From: Coriobacteriia bacterium
GTDB taxonomy: Bacteria > Actinomycetota > Coriobacteriia > Anaerosomatales > JAAXUF01
Length of the DNA: 64,000 nucleotides
Reading direction: 5' to 3'
Assembly: GCA_038249135.1 (NCBI GenBank)
Contig: JBBRWO010000001.1
Location: 24,876 to 88,875, forward strand
The position numbers and the translations under genes are program-made. The notes below the pieces were generated by a model. That model was not told where the DNA came from. It was given only the letters and a program-made list of their open reading frames with translations, and made no database searches. Shown here piece by piece: positions 38,637-61,572 of this stretch (positions are counted from its first letter, which is position 1; every line of letters starts with the position of its first letter).

Positions 38637-38653
38637 GAGAGCTCCCTCTGTAT

Positions 38654-39754: not shown

Positions 39755-40206
39755 CGGAACATGTCCCCTCTGCGATTCAGATGCAGGTGAGGAGACTCGA
39801 TCGGGATCTGGCCATGCCCACCTATGCACATGCTGGCGATGCCGGGCTGGATATTCGCTCAGCGGTGGACGTTGTGATAGCGCCAGGTGAACGCGCATTG
39901 GTGCCCACGGGAATCGCGATCGCGGTACCCGAGGGACATGCCGGCTTTGTCTTACCCCGCAGTGGGTCGGCGCTGAATCGAGGACTGGGGCTCGCAAACG
40001 CTCCAGGACTTATCGACTCCGCTTATCGAGGCGAACTCAAGGTCATTGTCATCAATCTCGATCGCATCGAGCCCATCGTGATCGCGCGCGGCGAGAAGGT
40101 CGCACAGCTGGTCATACAGCGCATCGAGCACTGTGTGCTTGTGGAAGTGGATCAGCTTGATGACACAGCTCGAGGGGAGGGCGGTTTTGGGAGCACGGGC
40201 ATCTGA
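39751..40206 (+). CDS. dut: dUTP diphosphatase
   Basis: AGLD, PRSG, GLIDSAYRGEL, AQLV, RGEGGFGSTG. Confidence 0.97.
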   Translation: MTEHVPSAIQMQVRRLDRDLAMPTYAHAGDAGLDIRSAVDVVIAPGERALVPTGIAIAVPEGHAGFVLPRSGSALNRGLGLANAPGLIDSAYRGELKVIVINLDRIEPIVIARGEKVAQLVIQRIEHCVLVEVDQLDDTARGEGGFGSTGI

Positions 40207-40648
40207 GTGGCCCCGCGTCAGAGTCGCTGCGCTTCTCCTGCGAGACGGCAAGGTCGTCGTCGTGAGGCATCGATCGGCGGGGAACGCTTATTACCTGTTG
40301 CCAGGTGGAGGCGTCGACTATAGAGAAACACTGGAAGCCGCGCTGCTGCGAGAGGTGCGCGAGGAGACCGGACTTATTGCCAAGATCGGTGAACTGCTTT
40401 ACGTCAACGACACCATCGATCCCAACGGTCCCCGTCACGTAATCAATATTACGTTTTCCGCAGAGATTGTAGGAGGCGCTTTGACCGACGCGCCGATCGA
40501 CGAAAACGTCGAAGCGGTCGAGTTGGTCACTCCCGAGAGGCTGATGAACCTCGACCTGCGTCCTCCGATGGTCGCCGAGATTCTAGAAGCGCTCTCCGGC
40601 AGCAATACCCATGGGTATCTTGGCTCGTTGTTTACGGCGGGTCGTTGA
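40187..40648 (+). CDS. NUDIX hydrolase (probable TTG start)
   Basis: Nudix box GGGVDYRETLEAALLREVREETG; GGGAGG RBS before TTG 40187. Confidence 0.88.
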   Translation: MGARASEWPRVRVAALLLRDGKVVVVRHRSAGNAYYLLPGGGVDYRETLEAALLREVREETGLIAKIGELLYVNDTIDPNGPRHVINITFSAEIVGGALTDAPIDENVEAVELVTPERLMNLDLRPPMVAEILEALSGSNTHGYLGSLFTAGR

Positions 40649-40778
40649 TTGGTCGCAAAGATACATAAGTCCGTTGGATTGGAGTCAGTGAGAGGGGCGT
40701 GAGCTCGGGAGGGCAGCTGCTGCCACAGTTGGAGATTGCCGGTTAACGTTGAGACAAACACAAGGGAAAGGACAAGGA

Positions 40779-42209
40779 ATGGAGACCTTCTTCAAGTTCA
40801 AAGAACGAGGCACGAACCTGCAAACTGAAATTCTTGCGGGCGTCACGACGTTCCTAACGATGGCCTACATCATTTTCGTGAACCCGGGAATCCTCTCGGC
40901 GGCGGGTGTCCCGTTCGAGGGCGCCGCGACTGCAACCGCATTGGGTGCGGGTCTGATGTGTCTCGCAATGGGATTCATCGCCAACCGACCCCTGGCGCTC
41001 GCTTCAGGCATGGGTCTGAATGCGGTCGTGACCTTCTCAATCATCGGTTTCCAGCAGGCCAACGTTCCCTGGCAGGTTGGTATGTCGGTTATCTTTGTTG
41101 AGGGCCTGATCATCTTCGCGTTGGTCCTGACTGGGTTGCGTGAGGCGATCATGAACGCGATACCTCTCGATCTCAAGCGCGCAATCGGCGTGGGTATCGG
41201 ACTGTTCATCACGCTCTTGGGCCTCATCGAGGGCGGCGTCATCACGCCTAACGCAGCCACCGTGGTATCCCTGGGAGACTTCACCAAGCCCTACGTGTGG
41301 GTGACGCTGATCGGTCTGTTCTCGATCATTGCGTTCATGGCCTTGAAGGTCAAAGGCGACATTCTCTGGGGCATCCTTGTCGCCACTGTCGCAGCGCTGC
41401 TCTTGAAGGTGACGCATCTGCCCACCGGCGTCGTCGCCAACCCGGACTTCTCCACCTTCATGGCGCCGTTCCAGCAGGTTGAGGGCGGCCTGGCGCTCCT
41501 CCAGATCTTCACGCCGGCACTTTTGTTCGCAGTGTTCGCAGTGATGCTGACCGACTTCTTCGACACAATGGGTACCGTACTGTCGGTCGGCGAACAGGCT
41601 GGCTTCGCGGATGCTGACGGTCAGGTCCCCGGCATCCGAAACATCCTACTTGTCGACTCTGCTGCAGCGAGCGTCGGCGGTCTCTTCGGCGCGTCGTCCA
41701 TCACCACCTACATCGAGTCGGCCGCCGGGGTCGCCGAGGGTGGTCGTACCGGGCTCACCGCAATTGTCACGGGTGTTCTATTCGCCGGAGCGGCCTTCTT
41801 CTCACCTGTTGTTCAAATGATCGGCGGGGGATTCCCGGTTCCTAATGCGGAGCGCTTCGGCTCGTTCATCGGATCCGGATTCACGGTTCCTGCAGACGTT
41901 CCGGTACCCAGCTTCACCGCGTTCCCGATCACCGCGGGCGCTCTCATCATCGTCGGCTTCCTCATGATTCGTGGAGTTGCCGAGATTCCCTGGGACAACC
42001 TCGAAGAGGCCTTCCCAGCGTACCTCACCATCGTCGGTATCCCGCTGACCTACAACATCAGCTGGGGTATTGGCCTTGGCTTCATCAGCTACGTGCTGAT
42101 CAAGCTCTTCCACCGCAAGGCTTCCGAAATTCATCCGCTCATGTGGGTGGCATCGGTCGCCTTCCTTGCGGCGTTCCTGCAAGGCCCGATTCTCGGGTTG
42201 TTCAACTAG
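40779..42209 (+). CDS. NCS2 / AzgA-like purine permease
   Basis: TEILAGVTTFLTMAYIIFVNP, GMGLNA, DFFDTMGT, YIESAAGVAEGGRTG. Confidence 0.93.
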   Translation: METFFKFKERGTNLQTEILAGVTTFLTMAYIIFVNPGILSAAGVPFEGAATATALGAGLMCLAMGFIANRPLALASGMGLNAVVTFSIIGFQQANVPWQVGMSVIFVEGLIIFALVLTGLREAIMNAIPLDLKRAIGVGIGLFITLLGLIEGGVITPNAATVVSLGDFTKPYVWVTLIGLFSIIAFMALKVKGDILWGILVATVAALLLKVTHLPTGVVANPDFSTFMAPFQQVEGGLALLQIFTPALLFAVFAVMLTDFFDTMGTVLSVGEQAGFADADGQVPGIRNILLVDSAAASVGGLFGASSITTYIESAAGVAEGGRTGLTAIVTGVLFAGAAFFSPVVQMIGGGFPVPNAERFGSFIGSGFTVPADVPVPSFTAFPITAGALIIVGFLMIRGVAEIPWDNLEEAFPAYLTIVGIPLTYNISWGIGLGFISYVLIKLFHRKASEIHPLMWVASVAFLAAFLQGPILGLFN

Positions 42210-42220
42210 TTTGACTCTCG

Positions 42221-42249
42221 GGGCCCCGGTCGACCGACCGGGGCCCTTT
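42221..42249 (+). terminator. Intrinsic terminator-like hairpin
   Basis: GGGCCCCGGTC-GACC-GACCGGGGCCC followed by TTT. Confidence 0.75.
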
Positions 42250-42272
42250 CAGCACAGACATGGAGGGGATTG

Positions 42273-43616
42273 ATGGCCGAGCGCGGAGTAATCCAGACCG
42301 ACGAGAAGCTGCCGGTATTCCAGGCGTTTCCGTTGGCACTTCAGCACCTGATGGCGATGTTTGGAGCCACGGTACTCGTACCCATTCTTACGGGTCTCGA
42401 TCCGGGTGTGGGTCTCATGACATCTGGTATCGGAACAATCATCTATCTGATCTGCACACGCAACAAGATTCCGAGCTACCTCGGTTCTTCGTTCGCATTC
42501 ATCGCTCCGTTGATCGCTGTGGGTGGCGGCGCGGCGGCCATCCAAGGTGGAACAGGCAACCTTCCGGCTGCTCTCGGCGGTCTTGTCGTCGCTGGTTTCG
42601 TGTATATGATCGTCGCTGGCTTCGTGAAGCTTTTTGGGACCGGTTGGATCAACAAGCTTCTCCCGCCGGCACTTGTGGGCGCGGTCGTCATCGTCATCGG
42701 TCTCGGCCTCTCTGCTGTGGCCGTCAAGATGTCGCTATACCCCTTTGCCGACCCCACTAAGGGAATCGACCTCAAGCTGGTTATGGTCGCATTCATCACG
42801 CTGGCAGCCGCAATCGTCTTCTCCTCGTTCTTCAAGGGCTTCATGAAGACGATCCCGGTACTGCTCGGCGTCGTGGTTGGCTACCTGGTGTCCATTCCGC
42901 TCGGCTTGGTCAGTTTCGATGCGGTCAATGCGGCCCCATGGATCGGTCTGCCCAACGTCACGTTTCCGACGTTCGAACTCGACGCGATTCTGATCATCGC
43001 TCCCGTGGCTATCGTCGTCATCGTCGAACACATCGGGCATCTCCTGGTCATCAACGAGATCACCGGCAAGGACTTCACTCCGATGATGCCGGAGTCGCTT
43101 TTCGGTGACGGTCTTGCGACGTCGATTTCGGGTCTTCTCGGCGGCACGCCTTCGACCACGTACGCCGAGAACATCGGCGTCATGGCGGTCACCAAGGTCT
43201 ACGCCACGCAGCTGTTCTGGTACGCCGGCGCGCTGGCGTTCGTCATTGGCGGTTTCGTGCCCAAGGTGAGCGCCGTCATCAGCTCGATTCCTACGCCGGT
43301 CATGGGCGGTATCTCGTTGCTGCTCTTTGGACTGATAGCCTCGAGCGGTCTGCGTCTGCTGGTCAAGAGTGGCATCGACTACAGCCACAGCCGCAACCTC
43401 ATCATGTCTTCGGTCGTTTTGACCATCGGCATCGGTATGGAGACGGGCGGATTCACGATTCCGTTTGGCAACTACTCCATTCCCGGTATGGCACTGGCGA
43501 CCTTCATCGGCATCTTCCTGAACCTGATCCTGCCCAAAGAGTCAGAAGGGCTGGCGCTGGATTCGCCATCGTTCTACGCAGAAGTGCAGGGCGAAGCGTC
43601 GGAGTCTAACGCCTAG
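42273..43616 (+). CDS. Uracil/xanthine permease (UraA/PyrP-like)
   Basis: LQHLMAMFGATVLVP, YLGSSFAFI, EHIGH, TTYAENIGV. Confidence 0.93.
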   Translation: MAERGVIQTDEKLPVFQAFPLALQHLMAMFGATVLVPILTGLDPGVGLMTSGIGTIIYLICTRNKIPSYLGSSFAFIAPLIAVGGGAAAIQGGTGNLPAALGGLVVAGFVYMIVAGFVKLFGTGWINKLLPPALVGAVVIVIGLGLSAVAVKMSLYPFADPTKGIDLKLVMVAFITLAAAIVFSSFFKGFMKTIPVLLGVVVGYLVSIPLGLVSFDAVNAAPWIGLPNVTFPTFELDAILIIAPVAIVVIVEHIGHLLVINEITGKDFTPMMPESLFGDGLATSISGLLGGTPSTTYAENIGVMAVTKVYATQLFWYAGALAFVIGGFVPKVSAVISSIPTPVMGGISLLLFGLIASSGLRLLVKSGIDYSHSRNLIMSSVVLTIGIGMETGGFTIPFGNYSIPGMALATFIGIFLNLILPKESEGLALDSPSFYAEVQGEASESNA

Positions 43617-49554: not shown

Positions 49555-50073
49555 TTAGTCGACGTGGATCAGCGAGACGATCTTTGCTTCGGGATCCAGC
49601 TTCGATCGACCGCTCAGAAAGTCGAGTTCGATGAGGAATGCGAAGCCAGCCACGCGGCCACCGGATTCCTTGACGAGCGAGGCCTTGGCAGCCGCGGTTC
49701 CACCAGTCGCAAGCACGTCGTCGACGATCAGCACAACATCTTCGGCGACGAAGGCGTCCGAGTGGACTTCGAGTGAGTCGGTGCCGTACTCCAGCTCATA
49801 CTCAACAGACGAGATGTCCCATGGCAGCTTCCCCGGTTTGCGAGCTGGCACGAAGCCGGCGTTGAGACGATACGCCAGAGCTCCCGCGAAGATGAATCCG
49901 CGCGCTTCCGCACCCATCACCTTAGTGACGCCGGCATCGGCGTACGCGTCGGCCATGGCGTCGATGGTGGCGCGAAACGCGTCAGCATCTGCAAGTAGTG
50001 GGGTGATGTCCTTGAAAACGACACCGGCTTTTGGCCAGTCTGGAATATCACGAATGTAAGAAGCGAGATCCAC
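49555..50073 (-). CDS. apt: Adenine phosphoribosyltransferase
   Basis: FKDITPLL, EARGF, RKPGKLP, YELEYG, VDDVLATGGT. Confidence 0.97.
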   Translation of the reverse strand: MDLASYIRDIPDWPKAGVVFKDITPLLADADAFRATIDAMADAYADAGVTKVMGAEARGFIFAGALAYRLNAGFVPARKPGKLPWDISSVEYELEYGTDSLEVHSDAFVAEDVVLIVDDVLATGGTAAAKASLVKESGGRVAGFAFLIELDFLSGRSKLDPEAKIVSLIHVD

Positions 50074-50134: not shown

Positions 50135-51130
50135 CTACAGCCGACAGGCCTGAAGCGACAGCGTTTCCACTTCTGACACCGTGCCGAGTACCACGATCTT
50201 CTCCCCTGCGTTGATGACGGTTTCGGGACCAGGGTTACCGTTCACTGTCCCGTCTTGTCGGAGCACGGCGACTACCTGCGCTCCTGTCAGCTCGCGAATC
50301 CTCGCATCGGCGAGGCTCTTCCCAGCGAAGCAGGAGTCGGGCATCAACTCGAGTTCCTGCAATCGGTAGCCGACTCCCTCGCCCGCCGACACTATGTCGA
50401 GGTAGTCCGACACCGTGGGCCGCATGACCATCGCGGCCATTCTGCGTCCGCCGATGACGTTGGGCGTTATGGTTCGATTCGCGCCGGCCTTCAGAAGTTT
50501 GGGCTCGGTCGACGCGTGGGAGGAACGCGCAACGATGAACACATCCGGATTGAGACCACGCGCCGTCACGGTGACGAAGAGATTCTCGGCGTCGCCAGAG
50601 AGGGCTGTGATGATGCTCCCAGCGCGCTCCAGTCCGGCTTCAAGCAGCGTCTCCTCCTCGGTGGCATCGCCGTGAACGCACAACCACCCGAGCTCACGCG
50701 CCTCCTCGACAGTGCCGGAATCGGCATCCACGATCACGAAACCGGCGTCTTCATCGGCGAGTGAGTGGCATGCCACACTCCCCACTCTTCCGAAACCCGC
50801 GACAATCGTATGGCCCTCAAGCGAACTGATGCGATTCTGCATGCGGCGACCTTCCAAGTAGCCGGTCACGTGACCTTCGAGCAGGAAATCGATGAACTGC
50901 GCCAGCGAGAAACCGAGTGCACCAACCCCGGCGAGGATAAGGACGATGGTGAATGCTCGTCCGGCTGTGGTAAGCGGATGCGTCTCGCCGAATCCCACGG
51001 TACCCACAGTGATTACCGTCATGTAGAGGGCATCGAAGACCGACCAACGTTCGATGAGCGTGAATCCCGCGGTACCGGCGAAGATGACCACCAGGACCGT
51101 AATCAGAGGCCATTTGAGTCGATTCAGCAT
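50135..51130 (-). CDS. Potassium channel with RCK (TrkA-N/TrkA-C) domains
   Basis: TVGTVGFGE selectivity filter, GFGRVG, GDAT, RCK_C; ATG 51130 immediately after hpt. Confidence 0.9.
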   Translation of the reverse strand: MLNRLKWPLITVLVVIFAGTAGFTLIERWSVFDALYMTVITVGTVGFGETHPLTTAGRAFTIVLILAGVGALGFSLAQFIDFLLEGHVTGYLEGRRMQNRISSLEGHTIVAGFGRVGSVACHSLADEDAGFVIVDADSGTVEEARELGWLCVHGDATEEETLLEAGLERAGSIITALSGDAENLFVTVTARGLNPDVFIVARSSHASTEPKLLKAGANRTITPNVIGGRRMAAMVMRPTVSDYLDIVSAGEGVGYRLQELELMPDSCFAGKSLADARIRELTGAQVVAVLRQDGTVNGNPGPETVINAGEKIVVLGTVSEVETLSLQACRL

Positions 51131-51131
51131 C

Positions 51132-51674
51132 TCAGAACACAACCTCATCAGGCAGAGTGGCAACATAGGGAAGGTTCCTGAATCGCCCGTTGAGATCGAG
51201 GCCATATCCGACCAGAAACTCGTCGGACATCTCCATACCTCGATAGGTGATAGGAATGTCAGCGATTCGCCGAGAAGGCTTGTCCAGAAGTGTGCATACC
51301 TCAAGCCTCGCGGGGTTTCGGGCTCTGAGGAGCTTCAGTACATAGTTCGCTGTGAGCCCGGTGTCGATCACGTCCTCTACCAAGAGGACACTCGTGCCAC
51401 CGATGTCATCGGAGAGGTCCTTTGTAAGCCGGACAAAACCGCCCGTGCCGTGAGCGTACGGCTGTACCGCGATGAAATCGATCTGGAGTGGTTGCGGGAT
51501 TGCCCTGCATAGATCAGCTAAGAACAAGAGCCCACCCTTCAACACTGTGACCAGACGCAGTTCTTCGCCGGCGTGGTCCTCGGCGACCTGAGAGCCCAGC
51601 CGAGCCACCGCATCGGCGATTCGCTCCTGGTCCGCGACAATGCGAGACCCTGAGGGCAAACCGACCAGACTCAC
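51132..51674 (-). CDS. hpt: Hypoxanthine phosphoribosyltransferase-family protein
   Basis: VLKGG, VEDVIDTGLT, LLDK, FLVGYGLD, RNLPYV. Confidence 0.88.
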   Translation of the reverse strand: MSLVGLPSGSRIVADQERIADAVARLGSQVAEDHAGEELRLVTVLKGGLLFLADLCRAIPQPLQIDFIAVQPYAHGTGGFVRLTKDLSDDIGGTSVLLVEDVIDTGLTANYVLKLLRARNPARLEVCTLLDKPSRRIADIPITYRGMEMSDEFLVGYGLDLNGRFRNLPYVATLPDEVVF

Positions 51675-52120
51675 TCTGGATCATCTCCCGGATGGCTCGC
51701 GATGAAGCCACCACCTTTCGCATGTGAAACCGCTTCTGTGGGAACGCCGAAGCGTGCGAGCAGATGTCGGAAGTCCTTCTGGTAGAAGACCTTGATGTTC
51801 ACGTCCGGATAGAGCTCCTTGAGCCGGCGAACCTTCCGATTCTTCTTTGTGACAAGCTTCTGGCTCATGGTCGTCAACTCGATATACGTGTCAAAATCCA
51901 CGAGGTAAAAGTCAGGAGTGAAATACGAGATCGGATTTCCGGCACCGTCCCACTGAATGGGAAACGACGTCGGCTCGTACTGCCACGCGATCCGGTAGTA
52001 GTTCAGAATCTGTGCGGCCATACGCTCGCTTGAGTGTGCGAAGTCCATCTGATCAAGCGGTGGGTGAGCTGCCACAACAGCGCTCCGAGCGTCGTCGGGG
52101 CTGTCGGCGTGTGCATTCAT
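51671..52120 (-). CDS. Hypothetical protein with a PD-(D/E)XK-like fold
   Basis: HSSE...WQYEP...FTPDFYL...YIELTT; coupled to hpt by GTGA overlap. Confidence 0.7.
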   Translation of the reverse strand: MNAHADSPDDARSAVVAAHPPLDQMDFAHSSERMAAQILNYYRIAWQYEPTSFPIQWDGAGNPISYFTPDFYLVDFDTYIELTTMSQKLVTKKNRKVRRLKELYPDVNIKVFYQKDFRHLLARFGVPTEAVSHAKGGGFIASHPGDDPE

Positions 52121-52122
52121 GA

Positions 52123-52830
52123 CTACGTGAGGTCCTCGAAAGCTTTGCCGAGTGCGCGGCGCAGAAGACGGCCCTTGAGCTCGTCGGTAAGAGTTCCGAG
52201 CTCCGTCAGCGTCTCAGCGAGCTTCTGCTTGGTGTCCACCGTCCGATGGCGAAACGCAGGCATGAGAATCTGAGAGAAGAGCGCAGCCTCTCGGTCTGCG
52301 AAGTTCTCGTACATGCGCAGGTGTCGCGGTTCAACGCCAAATCTGCGCATGTCCCAAGCCGCGTGAACGATCTGCACATCCCCACGGTCGAGAGCATCGG
52401 CGGAGTCCACCTTGCCGATGACCACGAGACCGAATTCCGCAAGCTCCCGGATGAAAGACACGGGGATACCGAGAGCTGTTGGAGCGGTCTCGATCAAAAA
52501 CGGCCCCTCGTCCTCCACGCTGAGTGGAAGGGGTTCGGTCATGCCCACGGGGCTTCGCTGAAGTTCGGCCGGGATGCGCCCGCGATCAAAGTCAGTGAGC
52601 TTCTCTCGAATGACCGCAAGTGGCAAGAAGTGGTCCTTTTGGAGTCTCAAAATCATCTCCACGCGTGCAACATCGGCCTGAGAAAACTTGCGGTAGCCGC
52701 CGGCCGTGCGCTCCGGTGCGACAAGCTCCTCTTCCTCGAGGAATCGTACCTTGGAGATCGAAAGGTCGGGGTATGCACTCTGTAGTCTCTGCACAACCTC
52801 GCCGATTGTCAGATAGTCGCGTCCCGACAT
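52123..52830 (-). CDS. MerR-family regulator (FtsR/Rv1828-like)
   Basis: LTIGEV...SISKVRFLEEE...PERTAGGYRKF...LPLAVIRE; FGVEPRHLR; follows the FHA gene. Confidence 0.88.
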   Translation of the reverse strand: MSGRDYLTIGEVVQRLQSAYPDLSISKVRFLEEEELVAPERTAGGYRKFSQADVARVEMILRLQKDHFLPLAVIREKLTDFDRGRIPAELQRSPVGMTEPLPLSVEDEGPFLIETAPTALGIPVSFIRELAEFGLVVIGKVDSADALDRGDVQIVHAAWDMRRFGVEPRHLRMYENFADREAALFSQILMPAFRHRTVDTKQKLAETLTELGTLTDELKGRLLRRALGKAFEDLT

Positions 52831-52832
52831 GA

Positions 52833-53279
52833 CTAACACACGCCCGATCCGAGAAAGAACACCATCTGGAACGTGCCGACCTGAAGCACATCGCCATCGG
52901 CAAGCTGAGCCGAATCCACGAGTTCACCGTTAATGTAGGTGCCGTTGAGGGAACCCGAGTCGGTCATATGGACCCCACTCGCCGAGCACTCCAACACTGC
53001 GTGAATCCGGGATACGGTCATGTCATTGAGGAAGATGTCACTCTGAGGGTCGCGTCCAACGGTGAGGCGGGCTCGATCGAGGAAGAATCGCTCACCGGGT
53101 TGGGGGCCTTTACGTACAACAAGAACGGGCCCTTCAGTTACGGTGGGAGACGGTACGGCGGTCTCGGTCACCTGTACCGGTTCGAACGACGCAGTCGCGC
53201 CCGGTACATGAAGACCGCACGAGGGGCAAACTCCGTCCTTGGAGTCCACAGGCACTCCGCACGCTGGGCACTGTGCCAC
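52833..53279 (-). CDS. Zinc-ribbon + FHA domain protein (GarA/OdhI-like)
   Basis: CPACG...CPSCG; FHA motifs GR..SDIFLNDMTVSRIHA, GSLNGTYING. Confidence 0.9.
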   Translation of the reverse strand: MAQCPACGVPVDSKDGVCPSCGLHVPGATASFEPVQVTETAVPSPTVTEGPVLVVRKGPQPGERFFLDRARLTVGRDPQSDIFLNDMTVSRIHAVLECSASGVHMTDSGSLNGTYINGELVDSAQLADGDVLQVGTFQMVFFLGSGVC

Positions 53280-53307
53280 GTTGGTCATCCCCTCTCGCAT
53301 GTTGATG

Positions 53308-53571
53308 TCAGTTTGAAAACCCGATTTCCGGGGGCTGAAATGCAGTCTGTATCTCGTGTTCGAGGGCGTCAACGACCTCAGGGTTCTCGAGAATATGCTT
53401 ACGCTTCTCGTCTGACAGACGATTCCTGACATACGGGTCATCGATGACTTCCATGAGGCGTCGTCCGTTGTTAACCTCGCGGATGACGTACTCGACAACT
53501 CGCTCTTCAACGGGATCCGACGCGAGATCCTCAAAGAACTGACGAATACGATCGTTGATGCTGCTGGCCAA
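53308..53571 (-). CDS. Hypothetical helical protein (87 aa)
   Basis: AAGGAGG RBS before TTG 53571; fills the gap between the RsiG-like and FHA genes. Confidence 0.78.
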   Translation of the reverse strand: MASSINDRIRQFFEDLASDPVEERVVEYVIREVNNGRRLMEVIDDPYVRNRLSDEKRKHILENPEVVDALEHEIQTAFQPPEIGFSN

Positions 53572-53631
53572 AGGTCCTCCTTGAGTCAGCACCGATACCC
53601 AGTGACATCGGTGGCGTTACATAGGGACGTG

Positions 53632-53943
53632 CTAATCGATGGCGTCCGGGTCATCGTCGGCTGCGACATCGTACCGAGATATCCCACGAAGGTCATTGGC
53701 GAGGATGTCGATGAGTCGATTGACGTCGCTGCCGCTGATCACGTCAGCTCCCGCTTCATGTTCACCCTTGAGTCGACGCACCAACTCAGCACGTAGAATA
53801 TCGATCTTCCCGTGCAGTACACGACGGCGATACGATGTTCTCTGCTCCTCGGCATACAGATCATCGAGGAGCTCACGCAGCTGCTCGTTGGTCTTCTTCC
53901 CAAGGTCGAGCAGTGCGTCGTCTCTATCCTCTTGGTCGAGCAT
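53632..53943 (-). CDS. RsiG-like c-di-GMP-binding anti-sigma factor (single motif)
   Basis: E33-x3-S37-x2-R40-x3-H44-x3-D48 in a coiled coil (EEQRTSYRRRVLHGKIDILRAEL). Confidence 0.78.
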   Translation of the reverse strand: MLDQEDRDDALLDLGKKTNEQLRELLDDLYAEEQRTSYRRRVLHGKIDILRAELVRRLKGEHEAGADVISGSDVNRLIDILANDLRGISRYDVAADDDPDAID

Positions 53944-53982
53944 GCTGCATACCTTCCCCTCGATTCAGGCTCCTCTAGTCGG

Positions 53983-53988
53983 ATTGTA
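53983..53988 (-). promoter_or_regulatory. Candidate -10 element (TACAAT) for the RsiG-like cassette
   Basis: GGTACAAT on the - strand, 40 nt upstream of the ATG. Confidence 0.45.
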
Positions 53989-54047
53989 CCGTAAGTGAGG
54001 GTCTCAGAACCTGTCGAGGTGAAGTACACGTTCAGGGTCGCACCTCA

Positions 54048-54836
54048 TCACACGTCGTCTTCTTCGACGCTCATGACCAGCGGTAACAGGCTCACAGCGA
54101 GCGCAATCTCTGCGGTCGTTGGGTTACCCGGCTCGAAGTTGACTCCGAGGGACGTGGAAATCCCTTCAACAACTGCGGCGGAAATACGTTCAATCGTGGG
54201 CACCGGCGTCACGAGATCGGACAGTGTGGCAGTACGTAGAGCCAGAAGTGCGGAGGCGTCCTCATTGAGCCTGAACACGCGGCTCTCCTTCACTACGTCA
54301 CGCGCCACCGTGAACGAGCCGTGTTGGAGGACCGTGTCTCCCGACCACACCTGCGCCGACCCGGAGAGCTTCCGGGCGCCAATCGAGAGATCTGCAGCGG
54401 TCGCATGCAGGTAGCAGGCCGCAGACGTGCGATCTCCACGTGCGGTTGCCGTAAGCAGGGCGTCCACGCCAAGAAGTCGATACGCCTCGGCAAGCCCTGT
54501 GCACAGCACCCGATATGACGCAGCGACGCCCCGAGGAATGCCGTCCTCGGCGCCGCAGACGAGCGAGTACGTGAGTTCGTTCGCGTGGAGCACTCCCCTG
54601 CCACCGGTGAACCGCCTCACCATGTCGATGCCATGGGATTCGCAGTAGGAGGAATCGACAGTGGAGCCCTTCTGAAACCGTCCGAGGGTCACTGTCGGTC
54701 GCACCCACTGGTAGAGCCGCAACGTCGGTGGTGACTCGCCTGAATCGCGGGAAAGTTGGATGGCCCGGTCGAGCGCCATATTCCAGGCGCCCTCGGCCGG
54801 GCCATCGTCAACGATCAGTCGCCACGCTGCGCTCAT
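54048..54836 (-). CDS. Lipoate ligase-family protein (LipM-like octanoyltransferase)
   Basis: NMALD, LRLYQW, VRRFTGGRGVLH, KLSGSAQ, LQHGS; short, with no accessory domain; follows the gcv genes. Confidence 0.85.
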   Translation of the reverse strand: MSAAWRLIVDDGPAEGAWNMALDRAIQLSRDSGESPPTLRLYQWVRPTVTLGRFQKGSTVDSSYCESHGIDMVRRFTGGRGVLHANELTYSLVCGAEDGIPRGVAASYRVLCTGLAEAYRLLGVDALLTATARGDRTSAACYLHATAADLSIGARKLSGSAQVWSGDTVLQHGSFTVARDVVKESRVFRLNEDASALLALRTATLSDLVTPVPTIERISAAVVEGISTSLGVNFEPGNPTTAEIALAVSLLPLVMSVEEDDV

Positions 54837-54846
54837 CGCCTACGTC

Positions 54847-56346
54847 TCACTCAGGAGTCGAGCGGTAGCGCAGATCGGGATTTCGTGCGGCTCCGGCCTC
54901 GTCCAGTCGGCGAACCGGAGTCGTATATGGTGCGCCCTTGACGAGCTCAGGGTTCTCGGCGGCCTCCTCGGCGATAGTGAGCATCACCTCGACGAAGGCG
55001 TCGAGCGCCTCCAGCGGCTCAGTCTCGGTAGGCTCGATCATCATGCCTTCCTCGACGAGCATCGGGAAGTAGATGGTAGGCGGATGGAAGCCGTAGTCGA
55101 GCAGGCGCTTCGCCATGTCGAGCGTGCGAACACCGAACTCGCGCTTCTGATGAGCGCCCGACATCACGAATTCATGCATACAGGTGCGACCGTACGGCAC
55201 CTCGAACGTGGACTCCAACTTGACCTTGAGGTAGTTGGCCGAGAGTACTGCTTGCTCGGCGACCTCACGCAGGCCGAAACCGCCAAGTGCGCGCACGTAG
55301 GCGTACGCCCTGACGAGGACGCCGAAGTTCCCGTAGCCGGCTCGAACTCGTCCGAGCGACTGCTCGGGCCATCCGAGGCCATATCCGCCGTCTTCGAACT
55401 CCACAGCGATCGGGCCTGGCAGGAACGGGGCCAGCTCGTCGGTCACACAGATCGGACCTGAGCCTGGTCCTCCTCCGCCATGTGGCGTGGCGAACGTCTT
55501 GTGAAGGTTGATGTGCATCGCATCAAAGCCCATGTCACCCGGCCGGGTCTTGCCCAGGATAGCGTTGAGGTTGGCGCCGTCGCAGTAGGCGAACGCCCCG
55601 ACCGCGTGGACGGCTTCCGTGATCTCAAGGATGTTTTCGTCGAACAGACCGACCGTATTGGGATTCGTGAGCATGAACGCGGCGACGTCGGTGTCAAGGA
55701 CGGCCTTGAGGGCATCCAGGTCCACCTCGCCCCGTTCGTTGCTCGGAATCGTGATCGCGTCCCAGCCACACATCGTGACCGAAGCGGGATTGGTCCCGTG
55801 GGCGGTGTCCGGGATGATGACCTTCTTGCGCGCGTCTCCGCGTGCAGTGAGAGCAGCACGGAAGACCATGAGCGCGGCGAGTTCCCCGTGCGCTCCGGCG
55901 GCCGGCTGCAGGCTCACGCCCGGAAGCCCGGTAATCTCCGCGAGGGCGTCTGACAGGCCCACCATGAGCTCCAGGGCGCCTTGGGTGGTGTCCTCGGGTT
56001 GATATGGATGAAGTCCGGCGAAGCCTTCGAGGCGGCAAGCATCCTCGTTGATGCGCGGGTTGTACTTCATCGTGCAGCTGCCGAGAGGATACATTCCTGA
56101 GTCCACGCCAAAGTTCATGGAGGCGAGGTGTGAATAATGCCGCATGATCTCAAGCTCGGTGACGTTGGGCAGGTCGAGTGCCGCGCGTCGAGTGCGACCA
56201 CCGAGCATCTCGTCCAGAGACCCCATGGGCACATCCAGTGGAGGCGCCTCGACGCAGCGAGATTCAGGTGCGCCGAGTTCGAAGATCAGGCTGCGAGGTC
56301 CGCGCGAGGGCGCGACACCCGGCGAATGCGAGAGTTGTTCGGTCAC
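54847..56346 (-). CDS. gcvPB: Glycine dehydrogenase subunit 2
   Basis: YPLGSCTMKYNP, QPAAGAHGE, HGTNPAS, NLHKTFATPHGGGGPG. Confidence 0.96.
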   Translation of the reverse strand: MTEQLSHSPGVAPSRGPRSLIFELGAPESRCVEAPPLDVPMGSLDEMLGGRTRRAALDLPNVTELEIMRHYSHLASMNFGVDSGMYPLGSCTMKYNPRINEDACRLEGFAGLHPYQPEDTTQGALELMVGLSDALAEITGLPGVSLQPAAGAHGELAALMVFRAALTARGDARKKVIIPDTAHGTNPASVTMCGWDAITIPSNERGEVDLDALKAVLDTDVAAFMLTNPNTVGLFDENILEITEAVHAVGAFAYCDGANLNAILGKTRPGDMGFDAMHINLHKTFATPHGGGGPGSGPICVTDELAPFLPGPIAVEFEDGGYGLGWPEQSLGRVRAGYGNFGVLVRAYAYVRALGGFGLREVAEQAVLSANYLKVKLESTFEVPYGRTCMHEFVMSGAHQKREFGVRTLDMAKRLLDYGFHPPTIYFPMLVEEGMMIEPTETEPLEALDAFVEVMLTIAEEAAENPELVKGAPYTTPVRRLDEAGAARNPDLRYRSTPE

Positions 56347-57743
56347 AGGGACGCCACCTCCTTGACGAACGCATCCATCTCGAGCTTCGTGCGCTTTTCT
56401 GTCACAGCGAACAGCACGAGGTGCTCGGCAAGATCGGAATCGATGCCGGTTGGCCACTCGGCCTCCACGTCAGCGACACTGACGCCTGCGAGGAAGCCTC
56501 GCTCGAGCATGGCTTCGTGCATATCCATCACATCACCGTCGTAGGCAAGAGCGAACTCGTAACCGAAGGCTGACTCCCATGGTGCGCTGAACTTGCCGCT
56601 GGCGAGCAGAGCATCGCGCAGGTAGTGCGCCTTGGCGACACACGTGCGAGCGATTCCCGCCAGACCTTCTCGGCCGACGGCGGACAGATACACGGTGGCG
56701 GCGAGCGCGTTGAGGGCATGGTTGCTGCAGATGTTGCTGGTCGCCTTCTCGCGACGGATGTGCTGCTCGCGCGTCGACAGCGTGAGCACGAACGCGCGAT
56801 TTCCGTCCACGTCGACGGTGCGCCCGACCACGCGGCCCGGCATCTGGCGGACGTGCTTCTCCCTGCAGGCGAAGAAGCCGAGTCCAGGGCCACCAAATGA
56901 CATCGTGTTCCCCAGCGGCTGTCCCTCCCCGACCACGATGTCGGCGCCGTATGAGCTGGGAGGCTCCATGATGCCGAGCAGAATCGGGTTCGTGGCGACG
57001 ACGAGGAGTGCGCCGGCTTCATGCGTGAGTCGCGCGATCTCCTCGAGATTCTCGAAGCTGCCGAAGAAGTTCGGCGTCTGGATCAGTACCGCGGCGACGT
57101 CGCCGGAAGCGAGCTCAGCGGCCAATGTATGACCACTGGTCGCCTCGTCTCTGTGGATCAGTGTAGACCCGTCCGCCATATCAACCGATGCGAACTGACC
57201 GACCTCGATACGGCCCGCCTCAGCGTAAGTGATCAGCGTGTTCTGCCACTCCGGATGAACCGTGGGTGAACAGATGACTCTCTGACGCTTCGTGACTCGT
57301 GCCGCCATCAGTGCGCCCTCGACAAGCGCCGTAGCGCCGTCGTACATACTGGCGTTCGCAACGTCCATGCCCGTCAGCGCACACACCATCGACTGATACT
57401 CGTAGATGGCCTGGAGGGTCCCCTGGCTCACCTCGGGCTGATAGGGCGTGTATGCGGTGAAGAACTCCGGCTTGGAAACCACGTGGTCGACCACGCTCGG
57501 GATGTAGTGATCATACGTCCCTGCGCCGACAAAACTCACGAGTCCGCCGGCCGGACGGTTGCGCGAGGCCAGTGACCTCATGTGTGATTCGAGTTCGATT
57601 TCCGTAAGACCGTCAGGAAGTGCGAGCTCGCGATCGAGCCGGACCGCCTCAGGAATGACCGAGAACAGCTCGTCGACCGATGAGACGCCGACAGCGCGAA
57701 GCATGGCTTCGCGCTGTTCGCACGTTACAGGTATGTATCGCAT
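56343..57743 (-). CDS. gcvPA: Glycine dehydrogenase subunit 1
   Basis: TAYTPYQPEVSQG, NASMYDG, TREQHIRREKATSNICSN. Confidence 0.96.
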   Translation of the reverse strand: MRYIPVTCEQREAMLRAVGVSSVDELFSVIPEAVRLDRELALPDGLTEIELESHMRSLASRNRPAGGLVSFVGAGTYDHYIPSVVDHVVSKPEFFTAYTPYQPEVSQGTLQAIYEYQSMVCALTGMDVANASMYDGATALVEGALMAARVTKRQRVICSPTVHPEWQNTLITYAEAGRIEVGQFASVDMADGSTLIHRDEATSGHTLAAELASGDVAAVLIQTPNFFGSFENLEEIARLTHEAGALLVVATNPILLGIMEPPSSYGADIVVGEGQPLGNTMSFGGPGLGFFACREKHVRQMPGRVVGRTVDVDGNRAFVLTLSTREQHIRREKATSNICSNHALNALAATVYLSAVGREGLAGIARTCVAKAHYLRDALLASGKFSAPWESAFGYEFALAYDGDVMDMHEAMLERGFLAGVSVADVEAEWPTGIDSDLAEHLVLFAVTEKRTKLEMDAFVKEVASL

Positions 57744-57749
57744 CGAGAG

Positions 57750-58133
57750 CTAGCCTTCGGTGATGAAGGCGTCGTAGTCCCCGGCGCTCATGAGCGCATC
57801 GAGTTCACCGGCGTCGGAAAGGGCGACCTTGACCATCCAGCCAGCCTCATGCGGGTCCGCGTTGACGGTTTCCGGGGAGTCATCGAGCGCGCTGTTGACC
57901 TCGGTGATCTCACCTGAAACGGGGGCGAACAACTCCGAAACCGACTTGACCGACTCGATCTCGCCAAAGCTGTCACCGACGGTCAATTCGTCGCCAACTG
58001 AGGGCAGGTCAACGTAGACGACCTCGCCAAGCTGGTCCTGGGCAAATGACGAGATACCGATGGTTGCGACGTCGCCGTCGACCACCACCCACTCGTGCTC
58101 CTTGGAATACACGCGATCGCTAGGATGAGCCAT
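57750..58133 (-). CDS. gcvH: Glycine cleavage system H protein
   Basis: HEW, GIS.FAQDQLG, ESVK lipoyl-lysine. Confidence 0.97.
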   Translation of the reverse strand: MAHPSDRVYSKEHEWVVVDGDVATIGISSFAQDQLGEVVYVDLPSVGDELTVGDSFGEIESVKSVSELFAPVSGEITEVNSALDDSPETVNADPHEAGWMVKVALSDAGELDALMSAGDYDAFITEG

Positions 58134-58175
58134 CTGTCTGTGCGCTCCTTTCGGGAGAACGCGCGTCGGCCCGGG

Positions 58176-59273
58176 TTAGGCCGACAGCGAAGTTGACGAC
58201 ACGAACGGGGTCTTGACCACTTTCGCGGTCAGGGTCTTCTTTCGAACCTCCACCGCAAGCTCGGTACCTTGGGCGGCGAGATCGACCGGCACATACGCCG
58301 TGGCGATACCCGTCTCAAGTGTCGGTGAGAAGCTTCCGCTCGCTACCTTACCCACGACGGTCCCGCCATGCAATACGTTCATGCCAGGCCGAGGAATCGC
58401 GCCAGCGACCACGAGCCCGACAAGTTTGGTTTTGGGACCACGAGCGCGGACCTCGGCGACCGGGCTTGCCCCGATGTAGTCCTGCTTGTCCTTGGGTACC
58501 ACCCATCCCAATCCCGCGGATATCGGGTCGATGGTGCGATCCATGTCGCTGCCGTAGAGCGGATAGCCCATTTCCAGTCGAAGCGTGTCGCGCGCGCCAA
58601 GACCTGCGGGTGTGACCTCACCAAAGGAAAGCAACGCTCTCCACAGAATCGGGGCGTCTTGTGCACGGCAGATAATCTCAACGCCGTCCTCGCCGGTGTA
58701 TCCGGTTCGAGCAACGAGAGCTGGAAGGGTATCCAGAACCGCATCGCCTATATGGAAACGGGCGGGCGCCAGCCAGTCCGCACCGGCGAGCTCGCGTACG
58801 ATTCTCAGGGCTTCGGGACCTTGAACGGCGATGAGCCCAGTCCGCTCGGACTCGTCGACCATCTCGATGTCATCCGGCGCGTGTTCGCTAAGCCACGCGA
58901 AGTCGGTCTCGGCGTTCGAGGCGTTCGCGATGATGAGGTATTCGAGGTCACCCGTGTGATAGACGATAAGGTCGTCGATGATGTGGCCGCCGGCGTCGAG
59001 CATGAGGGTGTACTGTGCCGAGCCCAGTTCCGAGATCCGCGCGAGATCGTTGGTGAGCATTCGCTGGAGGAAATCAAATGCCCCGAACCCGAAGATGCGA
59101 AACTCGGCCATATGACAGACATCAAAGATGCCGACTGAGGAGCGAACGGCCCGGTGCTCCTCGATGATGCCTGCGTACTGCACGGGCATCTCCCACCCAG
59201 CGAACGGAACCATTCTTGCACCGAGGGCAAGATGTTCATCGTAGAGTGGGGTGCGCTTCAGAGCGTCTGACAT
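58176..59273 (-). CDS. gcvT: Glycine cleavage system aminomethyltransferase
   Basis: [39 protein letters not shown]. Confidence 0.96.
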
Positions 59274-59334
59274 ATGTCGGGACCACCTTTCCATAGGGGT
59301 GAGTCGACCTCGCGGGCAGGCAAAGAGTACCGTA

Positions 59335-60594
59335 TCAGCCGAGGACGGCACGCCAGACGCGCACGATGCCGATCCATATCCTGTGCAGTGGGTTTGGTTT
59401 CCTGACATCGTACTTGGCGACGAGCGGAATGCTTGCGATCTGTCGTCCGGCCTGTGTGAACGTCACAACACCAACTGTCTGGCCTGCCTTCACCGGGGCC
59501 CTGGTTGCTGCCACGGTAACGGTCTTGGTGATTGGGCCATTGAGATCGAGAACCGGGACTGTCGCATCAATTGGAACGATCGCAGGCACGCTCACGTCGA
59601 GAAAGTCACTGACCGGAGCCTCGGCGAGGACTGACCCTGAGGTGGCGAGGCTCTGTGGGCGATAGTGAGCAAACCCCCAATCAAGCAGTTCCCGTGCATC
59701 TCTGAACCGCGCCGATTCCGTTTCGGTTCCGAGAACGACGGCGTAGAGGCCGATGTTGTTACGCTCGGCAGATCCGACGACACAGTACCCCGCATCAGAT
59801 GTGTAACCGGTTTTGATGCCCGTGACACCCTGATAGTTGTTGATGAGCACATTTGTATTGGGAAGCGTTTCCTTACGCGAGCCGGTGCCGATGGTTACTT
59901 GCTTCATTCCGACAATCGACTTGAACGCGGGTTTGGACATCGCGTACCGGGCGAGGACGGCGAGGTCGCGGGCGCTGGTCTTGTGTCCGGGTGCGTCGAG
60001 ACCATGTGCATTGCTGAAATGGGTGTCCGAAAGGCCGAGCTCGGATGCCTTCTTGTTCATCATGCCGACAAATTCGTCCGTCGAACCTGCGACGTGAATC
60101 GCAATTGCCTGCGCGGCGTCGTTGCCGGACTTCACCAGGAGCGCTTCGAGGATGTCGTGCATCGTGAGGCGATCCCCTCGCCGCAGAAATGACGTCGACT
60201 CGCCTACCCTTAGGGCCGCGGCGGTGACGTCGACCGTCTCGGTGAGTGAAGAACTCTCCAACGCGACGACAGCTGTCATGATCTTGGTGATGCTCGCCAT
60301 CGCACGGCGGCTATCGGCGCTGCGAGACCACAGTACACGGCCGTCGCCGTCCACGAGGATGCCCGCACGCATGGTCACGTCGGGCGTGGCCTTAGCGAGA
60401 GCGCCGAGCTCTGAGATGGCAACGCCGTCAATAGTGTCGCTCGGCCTGGATACAGCAGACGCAGAACTCAAGGTCGCGGGAAGGAGCACCGCACACGCCA
60501 GCAAGAAAGTGAGTGCGCGGTTCATCAAGGACGTCGCACGGGGCTTGTGACCTGCGTTGTGTATGCCGATACTGGCGCTAGAGGGCGAGCGCAT
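59335..60594 (-). CDS. D-alanyl-D-alanine carboxypeptidase (S11)
   Basis: SxxK (SITK), SGN, KTG motifs; PBP5 C-terminal domain. Confidence 0.93.
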   Translation of the reverse strand: MRSPSSASIGIHNAGHKPRATSLMNRALTFLLACAVLLPATLSSASAVSRPSDTIDGVAISELGALAKATPDVTMRAGILVDGDGRVLWSRSADSRRAMASITKIMTAVVALESSSLTETVDVTAAALRVGESTSFLRRGDRLTMHDILEALLVKSGNDAAQAIAIHVAGSTDEFVGMMNKKASELGLSDTHFSNAHGLDAPGHKTSARDLAVLARYAMSKPAFKSIVGMKQVTIGTGSRKETLPNTNVLINNYQGVTGIKTGYTSDAGYCVVGSAERNNIGLYAVVLGTETESARFRDARELLDWGFAHYRPQSLATSGSVLAEAPVSDFLDVSVPAIVPIDATVPVLDLNGPITKTVTVAATRAPVKAGQTVGVVTFTQAGRQIASIPLVAKYDVRKPNPLHRIWIGIVRVWRAVLG

Positions 60595-60753: not shown

Positions 60754-61572
60754 ATGAAGTACTCACGATTCGAGCAGTTGATTATCGGGCTGGGCGGTCT
60801 GGCCATTCTCGGTTCCCTGGCGCTGTCGCTCCAAAGCGGTGGTCCGGGCCTGATTGAAGTCGTCGCCCAACTGCTCCTGTTCGCGGTTCTGGTGGTTGCG
60901 GTGCACTGGGGACGTCGCGCCGGCCTATACGCAGCGATCGGCGCATCGCTCGTCTATATCGCGCTGCGAGTCCCGGCTCTTTCATCATCTGAGAATCTGA
61001 CTGTTGAGGGATTGATCTTCATGGTTGCCCGAATCGCTGCGTTCGGGCTCATCGGTATCGTCGGCGGTGAGGTGTGCAGCAGGATCAAGTACGTGTTCGC
61101 TCGATTCGATGATTCCAACACGATCGATGACTGGAGCCGCGTATACAACCAGCGCCACGCGTCCCGTGCCATCGAGCAGGCGCGCGCTCGCTACACCAGA
61201 TACGGGGAACCGTTCTCGTTGGTGATTCTCACTCTCTCCCCGGCCATTACGGTCGACATGACGCCACAAAGACAGCGGTCGTTGATTCGCACCGTTGCCA
61301 ACTACCTGCGCGATGACATTCGCATGGTTGACGAGGTGGGCCGACTCGATGATGGTCGTTTCGTGGTGTTGCTTCCCCATACTCCTCGCGAAGGCGGCGA
61401 AGTGGTGACCGCAAGACTCGCCGCAGGGCTGCGTCAGACAGTCGGAGCCAAAGCGGAATCCGTCACTGCGGTCTGCATGGGGGCAGCTGAGGATACCGTC
61501 GCACTGGCATCCCTCAACGCCGAACTGCTGGGCGACGAGGATTCAGACGTTCGGGAGAACTACGGAACGTAA
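60754..61572 (+). CDS. Membrane protein with a degenerate GGDEF-like domain
   Basis: About 4 TM segments; IDDWSRVYNQR (D.LTG..NR-like); RMVD..GRLDDGRFVVLLP. Confidence 0.75.
   Translation: MKYSRFEQLIIGLGGLAILGSLALSLQSGGPGLIEVVAQLLLFAVLVVAVHWGRRAGLYAAIGASLVYIALRVPALSSSENLTVEGLIFMVARIAAFGLIGIVGGEVCSRIKYVFARFDDSNTIDDWSRVYNQRHASRAIEQARARYTRYGEPFSLVILTLSPAITVDMTPQRQRSLIRTVANYLRDDIRMVDEVGRLDDGRFVVLLPHTPREGGEVVTARLAAGLRQTVGAKAESVTAVCMGAAEDTVALASLNAELLGDEDSDVRENYGT

Follow-up and report, generated by a model that had tools for sequence, protein, structure and literature searches.

A conserved actinobacterial gene cassette places a single-motif RsiG beside a Zn-ribbon FHA–FtsR pair and a second HPRT

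RsiG and WhiG are described as the only sigma/anti-sigma pair under the control of cyclic di-GMP (c-di-GMP) (PMC8325347). A set of 135 RsiG homologues includes five small proteins with a single motif, all from Rubrobacteria and Thermoleophilia, that form homodimers and bind both c-di-GMP and their own WhiG; the His-type motif, as in the Conexibacter RsiG, binds c-di-GMP (PMC8325347). A second described system is the cluster odhI–ftsR–PF02577 nuclease–MerR, with FtsR downstream of the FHA gene; in Corynebacterium and Mycobacterium the FHA–FtsR pair functions without RsiG or WhiG (PMC6683498). Here we analyze a cassette of six genes, rsiG, u94, a Zn-ribbon FHA gene, ftsR, u149 and hpt2, in the genome of a Coriobacteriia bacterium. 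The window, meaning the whole stretch of DNA that was analyzed, comprises 64,000 nt of contig JBBRWO010000001.1 (positions 24,876 to 88,875), and coordinates given without a contig refer to it. The cassette occupies 53943..51132 on the minus strand.

The cassette is real and conserved. We think it fairly likely that it represents one operon, probably with its own TACAAT promoter, in which three modules work largely on their own. In the first module, an RsiG homodimer loaded with c-di-GMP would sequester a WhiG-type sigma factor encoded approximately 70 kb away, with the level of c-di-GMP presumably set by the many GGDEF and EAL enzymes of the genome. The second, consisting of u94, the Zn-ribbon FHA protein and FtsR, would be a variant of the actinobacterial garA/odhI–ftsR pair: the FHA protein would read, and probably be switched by, Ser/Thr-kinase phosphorylation at a T-x-S-F site, and FtsR would act as a MerR-type regulator of division genes. 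In the third, u149 and hpt2, followed by apt, would serve purine salvage, with u149 as a putative partner or regulatory subunit of HPRT2. A preliminary description of the locus had instead proposed that the six genes form one new signaling system. The evidence does not bear this out, because RsiG tracks WhiG, the u149–HPRT pair stands alone in Dehalococcoidia, and u94, u149–HPRT and a downstream channel gene come and go. Since the partner of RsiG is encoded elsewhere, FHA–FtsR exists without RsiG, and u149–HPRT exists without either, three side-by-side modules are favored over a single system.

Gene order and promoter of the cassette

The six genes are tightly spaced and run in the same direction. 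The first gene, rsiG (53943..53632), is separated by 60 nt from u94 (53571..53308), which most likely begins with a TTG codon behind GGAGG. The gap between u94 and the FHA gene is 28 nt if the latter starts at GTG 53279, the ATG codons at 53288 and 53300 being alternatives. The FHA gene ends at 52833, 2 nt before the likely ATG start of ftsR at 52830 (GTG 52839 is the other candidate), and a further 2 nt separate the end of ftsR (52123) from u149 (52120..51671). For hpt2, which starts with GTG at 51674, this means a 4-nt overlap with the stop of u149, and a K+ channel gene begins 1 nt past the hpt2 stop (51132). This packing agrees in full with the preliminary description, as do the channel gene and the apt gene that follow, both identified by sequence and profiles. 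The gaps of 2 nt, 2 nt and 1 nt and the 4-nt overlap leave no space for separate promoters 3' of the FHA gene.

Upstream of rsiG, the 104-nt gap to lplA contains a TACAAT box (53988..53983, minus strand), a candidate -10 element read in the sequence and kept in relatives. TA[CG]AAT is retained in 16 of 16 aligned rsiG upstream regions, compared with a mean column identity of 40% otherwise. With the third position relaxed to TA[CGT]AAT, the box lies within 160 nt of the rsiG start in 75 of 81 upstream regions and is often preceded by TGn. This conservation supports the promoter suggested in the preliminary description as a conserved -10 box. A simple promoter/terminator scan returned one promoter-like and five terminator-like sites, none above shuffles and none at the gene junctions of interest. 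Based on the spacing and the box, the cassette is probably one transcription unit. A GAGG-rich recurring element lies 20–30 nt upstream of the -10 box (window ~54010–54035, minus strand) and occupies the same place in loci L012–L067; it takes forms such as GAGGTCGAG or runs like TAAGG-ATAAGG-CCGAGG-TCGAGG, with variable spacing, and could serve as an operator or as part of the promoter, upstream of its core.

To describe conservation we used 80 loci kept from a scan of species-representative genomes with the RsiG query, their gene content being assigned by tblastn with the window proteins. They come mostly from metagenome-assembled genomes (MAGs) titled Coriobacteriia or Actinomycetota, together with Candidatus Aquicultor and Solirubrobacterales, and most belong to one order. 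FHA and FtsR are each present in 79 loci, u94 in 71, u149 and HPRT in 64 each, apt in 59 and the K+ channel in 38. The single locus that misses FHA and FtsR ends right after u94. The genes are colinear on one strand in 79 of the 80 loci, the exception being a misplaced best match for gcvPA; a colinear, co-directional order at this frequency in related loci is far beyond chance. Genes gcvPA, gcvPB and lplA precede rsiG in most loci, and the entire 12-gene order from gcvPA to NlpC is found in 27, with the same order minus the channel in 18 more.

Other loci of this set retain the cassette in part. Aquicultor-type loci keep gcvPA–gcvPB–rsiG–u94–FHA–ftsR, and in Solirubrobacterales loci a pgsA-like gene is followed by rsiG–FHA–ftsR. 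The core rsiG–ZnR-FHA–ftsR (ZnR, Zn ribbon) recurs in Aquicultor, Solirubrobacterales and many unnamed families of Actinomycetota, and u94, u149–HPRT and the K+ channel are gained or lost between lineages. Of 61 u149–HPRT junctions, 36 show a 4-nt overlap of stop and start and seven a 1-nt overlap (43 of 61 together). A second scan, with a Solirubrobacterales RsiG as query, returned close MAG relatives only. The preliminary description had recommended a survey of gene neighborhoods and considered that the order might not be conserved past FHA–MerR; in the 80 loci and in 40 loci from other families, introduced below, it is kept well beyond that pair.

RsiG and its WhiG partner

The product of rsiG is a 103-residue protein that matches PF22802 with 66.1 bits (cut-off 27), the sole PF22802 match in the genome. 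Its translation contains one motif, EEQRTSYRRRVLHGKID, which reads E-x3-S-x2-R-x3-H-x3-D and fits the consensus E(X)3S(X)2R(X)3[Q/H](X)3D. The motif helix aligns with the RsiG structures of S. venezuelae (6pfj_T, E 5e-9) and R. radiotolerans (7lq4_D, E 8e-8).

A search of the genome for a WhiG/FliA sigma factor and diguanylate cyclases, which had been proposed at the outset, found one WhiG together with 17 GGDEF, 4 EAL and 4 Hanks-type Ser/Thr-kinase hits. The WhiG-type sigma is encoded at G000:C1:6656-7435, ~70 kb from rsiG and ~18 kb before the start of the window. It is the one sigma over the FliA/WhiG cut-off in the genome (TIGR02479, 284 bits versus 189.6) and scores 306 bits against S. 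venezuelae WhiG versus 175 bits against FliA. Residues K57, G61 and R62 are retained; a 2026 preprint names them as c-di-GMP contacts and as the hallmark of WhiG2, the clade that RsiG regulates (10.64898/2026.01.14.699351). Four of five sigma-4 contacts are also kept (L236, Y239, E240 and L242), with T235 replaced by Ala. The whiG gene is flanked by an xerC-like recombinase gene on one side and a response-regulator gene on the other, with rpsB, tsf, pyrH and frr coming next, and its surroundings contain no flagellar cluster. In Streptomyces, whiG lies near rpsB–tsf as well. Within the window, ~7 kb upstream of rsiG on the opposite strand, a 272-residue frame (60754–61569, plus) gives a partial, weak GGDEF match (29 bits, profile 58–109) and may encode a degenerate diguanylate-cyclase-like protein.

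The distribution of RsiG was analyzed in 401 sampled Actinomycetota genomes at least 90% complete. PF22802 is present in 274 of them and a FliA/WhiG sigma over the cut-off in 288. Compared row by row, and reconciled with the family tallies, 269 genomes have both, 5 have RsiG only, 19 have WhiG only and 108 have neither, a count of related genomes that includes 14 to 15 unpublished ones and is not a statistical test. The tallies of RsiG and WhiG by family are almost identical. None of 29 genomes from three other families of the window's class gives a PF22802 match. In five RsiG-less genomes of this class, WhiG is found in none, and FHA–FtsR is kept in two, with FHA just upstream. The distribution of RsiG thus tracks WhiG rather than FtsR or the cassette. 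Because RsiG co-distributes with WhiG and the genome's own WhiG keeps the contact residues, RsiG is most likely an ordinary c-di-GMP-armed anti-sigma of WhiG, predicted to act as in Rubrobacter and Conexibacter. One family, f56 (G089, G133, G147, G174, G224, G247, G257, G400 and G411), has a WhiG/FliA sigma in nine of nine genomes and an RsiG-like match in none; its sigmas may be of the flagellar WhiG1 type of the 2026 preprint.

A further 40 loci come from other families. We picked them, not randomly but to cover many families, among the 150 PF22802 matches with the highest scores, and scanned them with profiles built from the 80 loci and for the motif. A single RsiG hit is found in 22 of these, and in 21 of the 22 FHA and FtsR come after it, in this order and on its strand; the remaining one, without FHA and FtsR, is a weak match within a 1027-residue frame. 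The full c-di-GMP motif is present in 20 of the 21 single-hit RsiGs that precede FHA–FtsR. The other 18 loci contain the twin-motif form, with two hits in one frame, and 17 of them have neither FHA nor FtsR nearby. The eighteenth, L211 (G256:C2:233700-243900), encodes twin His-type motifs in a 174-residue frame (5010–5531, minus) directly upstream of ZnR-FHA and FtsR. For the internal duplication that PMC8325347 proposes, L211 may show an intermediate stage. We dropped the number of matches per genome as a tally of single- versus twin-motif proteins, since at least two twin-motif proteins (G097 and G229) show one match.

The RsiG of single-motif locus L196 matches the crystallized R. radiotolerans RsiG with 125 bits (E 1.3e-35), so a near relative of a validated RsiG has the same neighbors. 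It is this match to the Protein Data Bank (PDB) that links the cassette to Rubrobacter RsiG, since in searches for named Rubrobacter records a degenerate DNA pattern gave 0 matches and a scan with the L196 protein gave no confirmed relative. Genomes of Solirubrobacterales, Coriobacteriaceae bacterium EMTCatB1 and Aquicultor each have one PF22802 match, located beside FHA–FtsR, plus WhiG. In Actinomycetota, single-motif RsiG is widespread, and its gene nearly always precedes one for a Zn-ribbon GarA-like protein, followed by ftsR. The main text and supplement of PMC8325347 contain no mention of an FHA–FtsR neighborhood, FHA, MerR or Coriobacteriia. In the literature searched, which is part of the whole, single-motif RsiG appears only in that paper and the 2026 preprint, its position upstream of these genes is absent, the ten listed of 72 papers with RsiG and GarA deal with other subjects, and no paper has both RsiG and FtsR, in line with the view of the preliminary description that the combination is undescribed.

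The FHA–FtsR pair, u94 and the purine genes

The FHA protein matches the FHA profile with 66 bits and gives weak zinc-ribbon hits. Against the OdhI model NF041660 it scores 111.3 bits (cut-off 200), with only the FHA part aligned (residues 56–151), and it is therefore not filed as OdhI. N-terminal to the FHA domain are CPACG...CPSCG and then ATASF. Every one of the 22 FHA genes next to an RsiG-like gene in the other-family loci encodes an N-terminal CxxC...CxxC ribbon, and after the ribbon most of the Zn-ribbon proteins examined have [ST]-T, then F or Y two or three residues on. The two FHA relatives of RsiG-less genomes have no ribbon and carry STCVFR and ATSIFR. The N-terminal phospho-acceptor Thr of GarA lies in an ETTS-like sequence, which STCVFR and ATSIFR, in our judgment, resemble. 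The sequence features describe a predicted GarA/OdhI-like switch with an extra Zn ribbon.

FtsR, encoded downstream of this GarA/OdhI-type FHA gene, matches the equivalog NF050798 with 209.3 bits (cut-off 150) over profile positions 1–222 of 223. In 7 of 13 other-family loci (L196, L198, L210, L213, L225, L227 and L232) apt directly follows ftsR, indicating that a purine phosphoribosyltransferase at this place is recurrent and not lineage-specific. In the lineage of the window, u149–hpt2, and sometimes the channel gene, are inserted between ftsR and apt.

The 87-residue protein u94, whose TTG start at 53571 agrees with the starts of its relatives, is found in 71 of the 80 loci and in five other-family loci, and 10 residues are invariant in the alignment. 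It is always encoded directly upstream of FHA, even where another gene lies between u94 and rsiG (L209, L218). Its AlphaFold2 (AF2) model is all-helical (pLDDT 73). Searches of Pfam and NCBIfam gave no family for u94, its PDB sequence hits are designed helical proteins only, and with atlas scores below 0.9 and a best fold Z of 5.5 there is no fold lead.

u149 has 149 residues, with 43 invariant columns across 46 sequences, and matches no Pfam (E up to 0.01) or NCBIfam family and no PDB sequence. PF02577, the bifunctional nuclease at the cg1632/Rv1829 position, gave no match for u149 and none among the 120 near relatives listed. The AF2 model (pLDDT 79, pTM 0.68) gave weak Foldseek rows, all with E > 0.01. 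With VIA, 26 rows reached Z of at least 5, nearly all of them of the restriction-endonuclease fold, with Z from 8.0 to 5.0 over 83 to 109 aligned residues; the matches include Bax1, VRR-NUC, I-Bth0305I, Vsr, TnsA, Can2, Hjc and two mitoribosomal chains. Z values of this size are common for models without clear relatives, so a PD-(D/E)xK restriction-endonuclease-like fold is likely for the model, not proven. Residues E32, D70 and E81 are invariant, T83 occupies the position of the triad Lys, and an invariant basic helix follows. The atlas gives a hint to phage endonuclease I (0.91, 166 shared features), which we treat as a lead only. The gene calls of the preliminary description, including a nuclease fold and a variant HPRT, agree with the profile matches and, for the likely fold of u149, with VIA.

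The u149 profile retrieves 2118 cluster representatives at E up to 0.001. None of the 120 near relatives listed has a Pfam domain; those with names are called hypothetical, and a few JGI records are called HPRT. Stand-alone relatives P0200, P0206 and P0238 are named 'hypoxanthine phosphoribosyltransferase' though they have no phosphoribosyltransferase (PRT) domain, a name probably carried over from fused forms. The 20 longer relatives scanned comprise seven with an N-terminal cytidylate-kinase-like domain (PF13189), two GAF–u149–PRT proteins, one u149–PRT, one MerR–u149, one with a PilO hit and eight without a family. In P0005, P0009, P0013, P0028, P0032, P0046, P0050 and P0074, u149 stands C-terminal to the cytidylate-kinase-like domain (seven cases) or behind MerR (one case). 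These fusions show that the partners of u149 are nucleotide enzymes and a regulator of the type found in the classical ftsR cluster.

The product of hpt2 matches TIGR01203 with 171.3 bits (cut-off 150), and its catalytic residues E100, D101, D104, T105, G106, D160 and R166 are invariant across 45 sequences. A canonical hpt, 44% identical to hpt2, lies on another contig (G000:C5:34185-34730) in a tilS–hpt–ftsH–folE cluster (G000:C5:31564-36169); the genome thus has two HPRT genes. The GAF–u149–HPRT form belongs to Dehalococcoidia, where u149 is directly before or fused to HPRT in 29 of 30 loci and RsiG, FHA and FtsR are found in none. In three of three Dehalococcoidia genomes the u149–HPRT fusion is the only HGPRTase over the cut-off. 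The u149–HPRT pair is therefore a separate module. The flexible loop of hpt2 is two residues shorter, as in the fused forms. A grouping of HPRT2 with the fused Dehalococcoidia HPRTs as a clade separate from canonical Hpt was not supported by pairwise identities (46–50% versus 44–52%).

Fusion together with translational coupling makes a u149–HPRT complex likely. It may regulate salvage, or supply it through a nuclease. u149 represents a large unnamed domain family, likely of the endonuclease fold and tied to HPRT; it is absent from the literature searched, which likewise contains no paper combining HPRT, a GAF domain and fusion.

Downstream of hpt2 on the same strand, the RCK-type K+ channel gene (51130..50135; Ion_trans_2, TrkA_N and TrkA_C) is a variable member of the locus. 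It is followed by apt (50073..49555, minus), an adenine phosphoribosyltransferase gene (NF002636 225 bits, TIGR01090 215 bits), and 3' of apt by an NlpC/P60 hydrolase gene. Upstream of rsiG, gcvT, gcvH, gcvPA, gcvPB and the lipoate-protein ligase gene occupy 54048..59408 on the minus strand; moving 5' from the ligase gene one meets gcvPB, gcvPA, gcvH, gcvT and a D-Ala-D-Ala carboxypeptidase gene. Elsewhere in the window, nrdR, dUTPase, NUDIX and then two xanthine/uracil-family permease genes (39308–43613, plus) form a second nucleotide-metabolism cluster, downstream of lexA (38016–38765, minus).

Alternative explanations and comparison with known systems

Several observations weigh against modules that work on their own, or limit the evidence for them. 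The adjacency of rsiG, ZnR-FHA and ftsR spans many families and at least three named classes, which exceeds the expectation for unrelated neighbors and speaks for a functional link of some kind. All 22 RsiG-adjacent FHA genes have the Zn ribbon and neither of two RsiG-less ones has it, a comparison among related genomes, so the cases are not independent. The RsiG–WhiG tallies, too, count related genomes, and the other-family loci are a chosen set. The strict sigma-28/WhiG promoter consensus has 0 hits genome-wide; with one mismatch there are 2 hits, versus 5, 1, 5, 6 and 4 in five shuffles, which is no enrichment and predicts no regulon. The half-site pattern of C. glutamicum FtsR, taken from the 25-bp inverted-repeat site of the ftsZ promoter, has 0 matches with up to three mismatches at the ftsZ locus L269 and in the window, and the site may have diverged here. 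An alternative is an integrated pathway, in which the c-di-GMP/RsiG–WhiG switch is coupled to a route from a Ser/Thr kinase through ZnR-FHA to FtsR, and both jointly set the expression of division genes; for instance, RsiG or WhiG, once phosphorylated, could be a ligand of the FHA protein, or the Zn ribbon might dock on RsiG, with the purine genes reporting nucleotide supply. Such coupling would account for the place of rsiG immediately before ZnR-FHA–ftsR in 21 of the 22 single-hit other-family loci and 79 of 80 related ones, for the twin-motif RsiG of L211 still in that position, for the ribbon that accompanies RsiG, for apt straight after ftsR in 7 of 13 loci and for the MerR–u149 fusion, and in Streptomyces WhiG drives sporulation septation, a division process (PMC8325347, PMC7005675). 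However, adjacency alone is weak evidence for binding, twin-motif RsiGs operate away from FHA–FtsR (17 of 18 loci with neither nearby), and FHA–FtsR is found without RsiG or WhiG in two of five genomes of the same class as well as in Corynebacterium and Mycobacterium (PMC6683498). We regard an integrated pathway in any of these forms as unlikely, but the persistence of the rsiG–FHA–ftsR adjacency keeps mechanistic coupling alive as a minority reading. Its fullest version, to which we give a similarly low weight, would make rsiG–ZnR-FHA–ftsR(–apt) the ancestral home of the c-di-GMP/sigma-WhiG switch in Actinomycetota. The ZnR GarA-like protein, FtsR or both would act on RsiG–WhiG or be its targets, which would bring c-di-GMP, Ser/Thr phosphorylation and purine supply together in the control of division genes. 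Streptomyces would carry, in its twin-motif RsiG, a derived form that has left the locus, with L211 a surviving intermediate. As a separate element of this version, HPRT would have in u149 a new partner domain, regulatory or catalytic, common to Actinomycetota and Chloroflexota.

The constant position beside FHA–FtsR also raises the question whether the RsiG-like protein is an anti-sigma at all. It could instead belong to the FHA/FtsR module as a small coiled-coil accessory, related to RsiG by ancestry alone; rsiG and whiG are unlinked, ~70 kb apart, and the sigma-28 consensus is not enriched in the genome. This explanation is very unlikely in our view, because the full c-di-GMP motif is present here and in 20 of 21 positional orthologues, one of which matches the crystallized WhiG-binding Rubrobacter RsiG (E 1.3e-35); WhiG is found in 269 of 274 RsiG-bearing genomes and retains its c-di-GMP contact residues; and RsiG and WhiG disappear together, with FHA–FtsR left in place. 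A different concern is that the order is simply old, inherited in slowly rearranging genomes by independently transcribed housekeeping genes that share no regulation. The genes hpt, apt, gcv and ftsR are of housekeeping type, a single order supplies most of the 80 loci, and no promoter or terminator signal rises above shuffles. Against this, the gaps of 2 nt, 2 nt and 1 nt and the 4-nt overlap leave no room for promoters past the FHA gene, u149 and hpt2 overlap in 43 of 61 loci, the -10 box upstream of rsiG is single and conserved, and the core is kept across classes where the flanking genes differ. We consider mere inheritance of gene order improbable, and prefer one operon of three modules.

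The single-motif, supposedly ancestral RsiG had been reported from five species in two classes, and is found here in uncultured Coriobacteriia, Aquicultor and many more families of Actinomycetota. The rsiG–FHA–ftsR adjacency offers a testable lead on a question of the FtsR paper, namely what controls FtsR and why it always follows garA/odhI. In some Dehalococcoidia u149 is joined to the sole HPRT, and this family of 2118 cluster representatives may therefore regulate purine salvage.

Comparison with known systems places the purine module closest to canonical HPRT of the tilS–hpt–ftsH type. The two share TIGR01203 and, invariant in 45 sequences, the PRPP loop EDxxDTG, GYGxD and the R of (Y/F)RNLP; unlike the canonical enzyme, hpt2 is a second copy with a shorter flexible loop, is translationally coupled to u149, and has relatives elsewhere that are fused to u149 and GAF. 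For u149, the likeness is to small PD-(D/E)xK nucleases (Vsr, VRR-NUC, the Bax1 nuclease domain, I-Bth0305I, T7 endonuclease I and Hjc) and lies in the predicted core fold. u149 has an invariant Glu in its first helix, a P-D ahead of one strand and an E within the strand that follows, but has no sequence-family match and a Thr in place of the triad Lys, and any nuclease activity is putative.

The second module is closest to the odhI/garA–ftsR cluster of Corynebacterium, Mycobacterium and other Actinobacteria (PMC6683498), since in both the FHA gene immediately precedes that of an FtsR equivalog and gcv genes lie nearby. It differs in the N-terminal Zn ribbon, in a score below the OdhI cut-off, and in rsiG and u94, which precede FHA. 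After ftsR, the published cluster continues with a PF02577 nuclease and a second MerR, whereas here u149–hpt2–(kch)–apt follow. The RsiG of the cassette resembles the single-motif RsiGs of Rubrobacter radiotolerans and Conexibacter woesei (PDB 7LQ2, 7LQ3 and 7LQ4; PMC8325347) in its length of ~100 residues, its one E-x3-S-x2-R-x3-[Q/H]-x3-D motif, PF22802 and a co-occurring WhiG-type sigma with K57, G61 and R62. With the Conexibacter protein it also shares the His in the motif. The published examples come from five species of Rubrobacteria and Thermoleophilia, and the protein described here from an uncultured member of the Coriobacteriia, where binding of c-di-GMP and WhiG is predicted.

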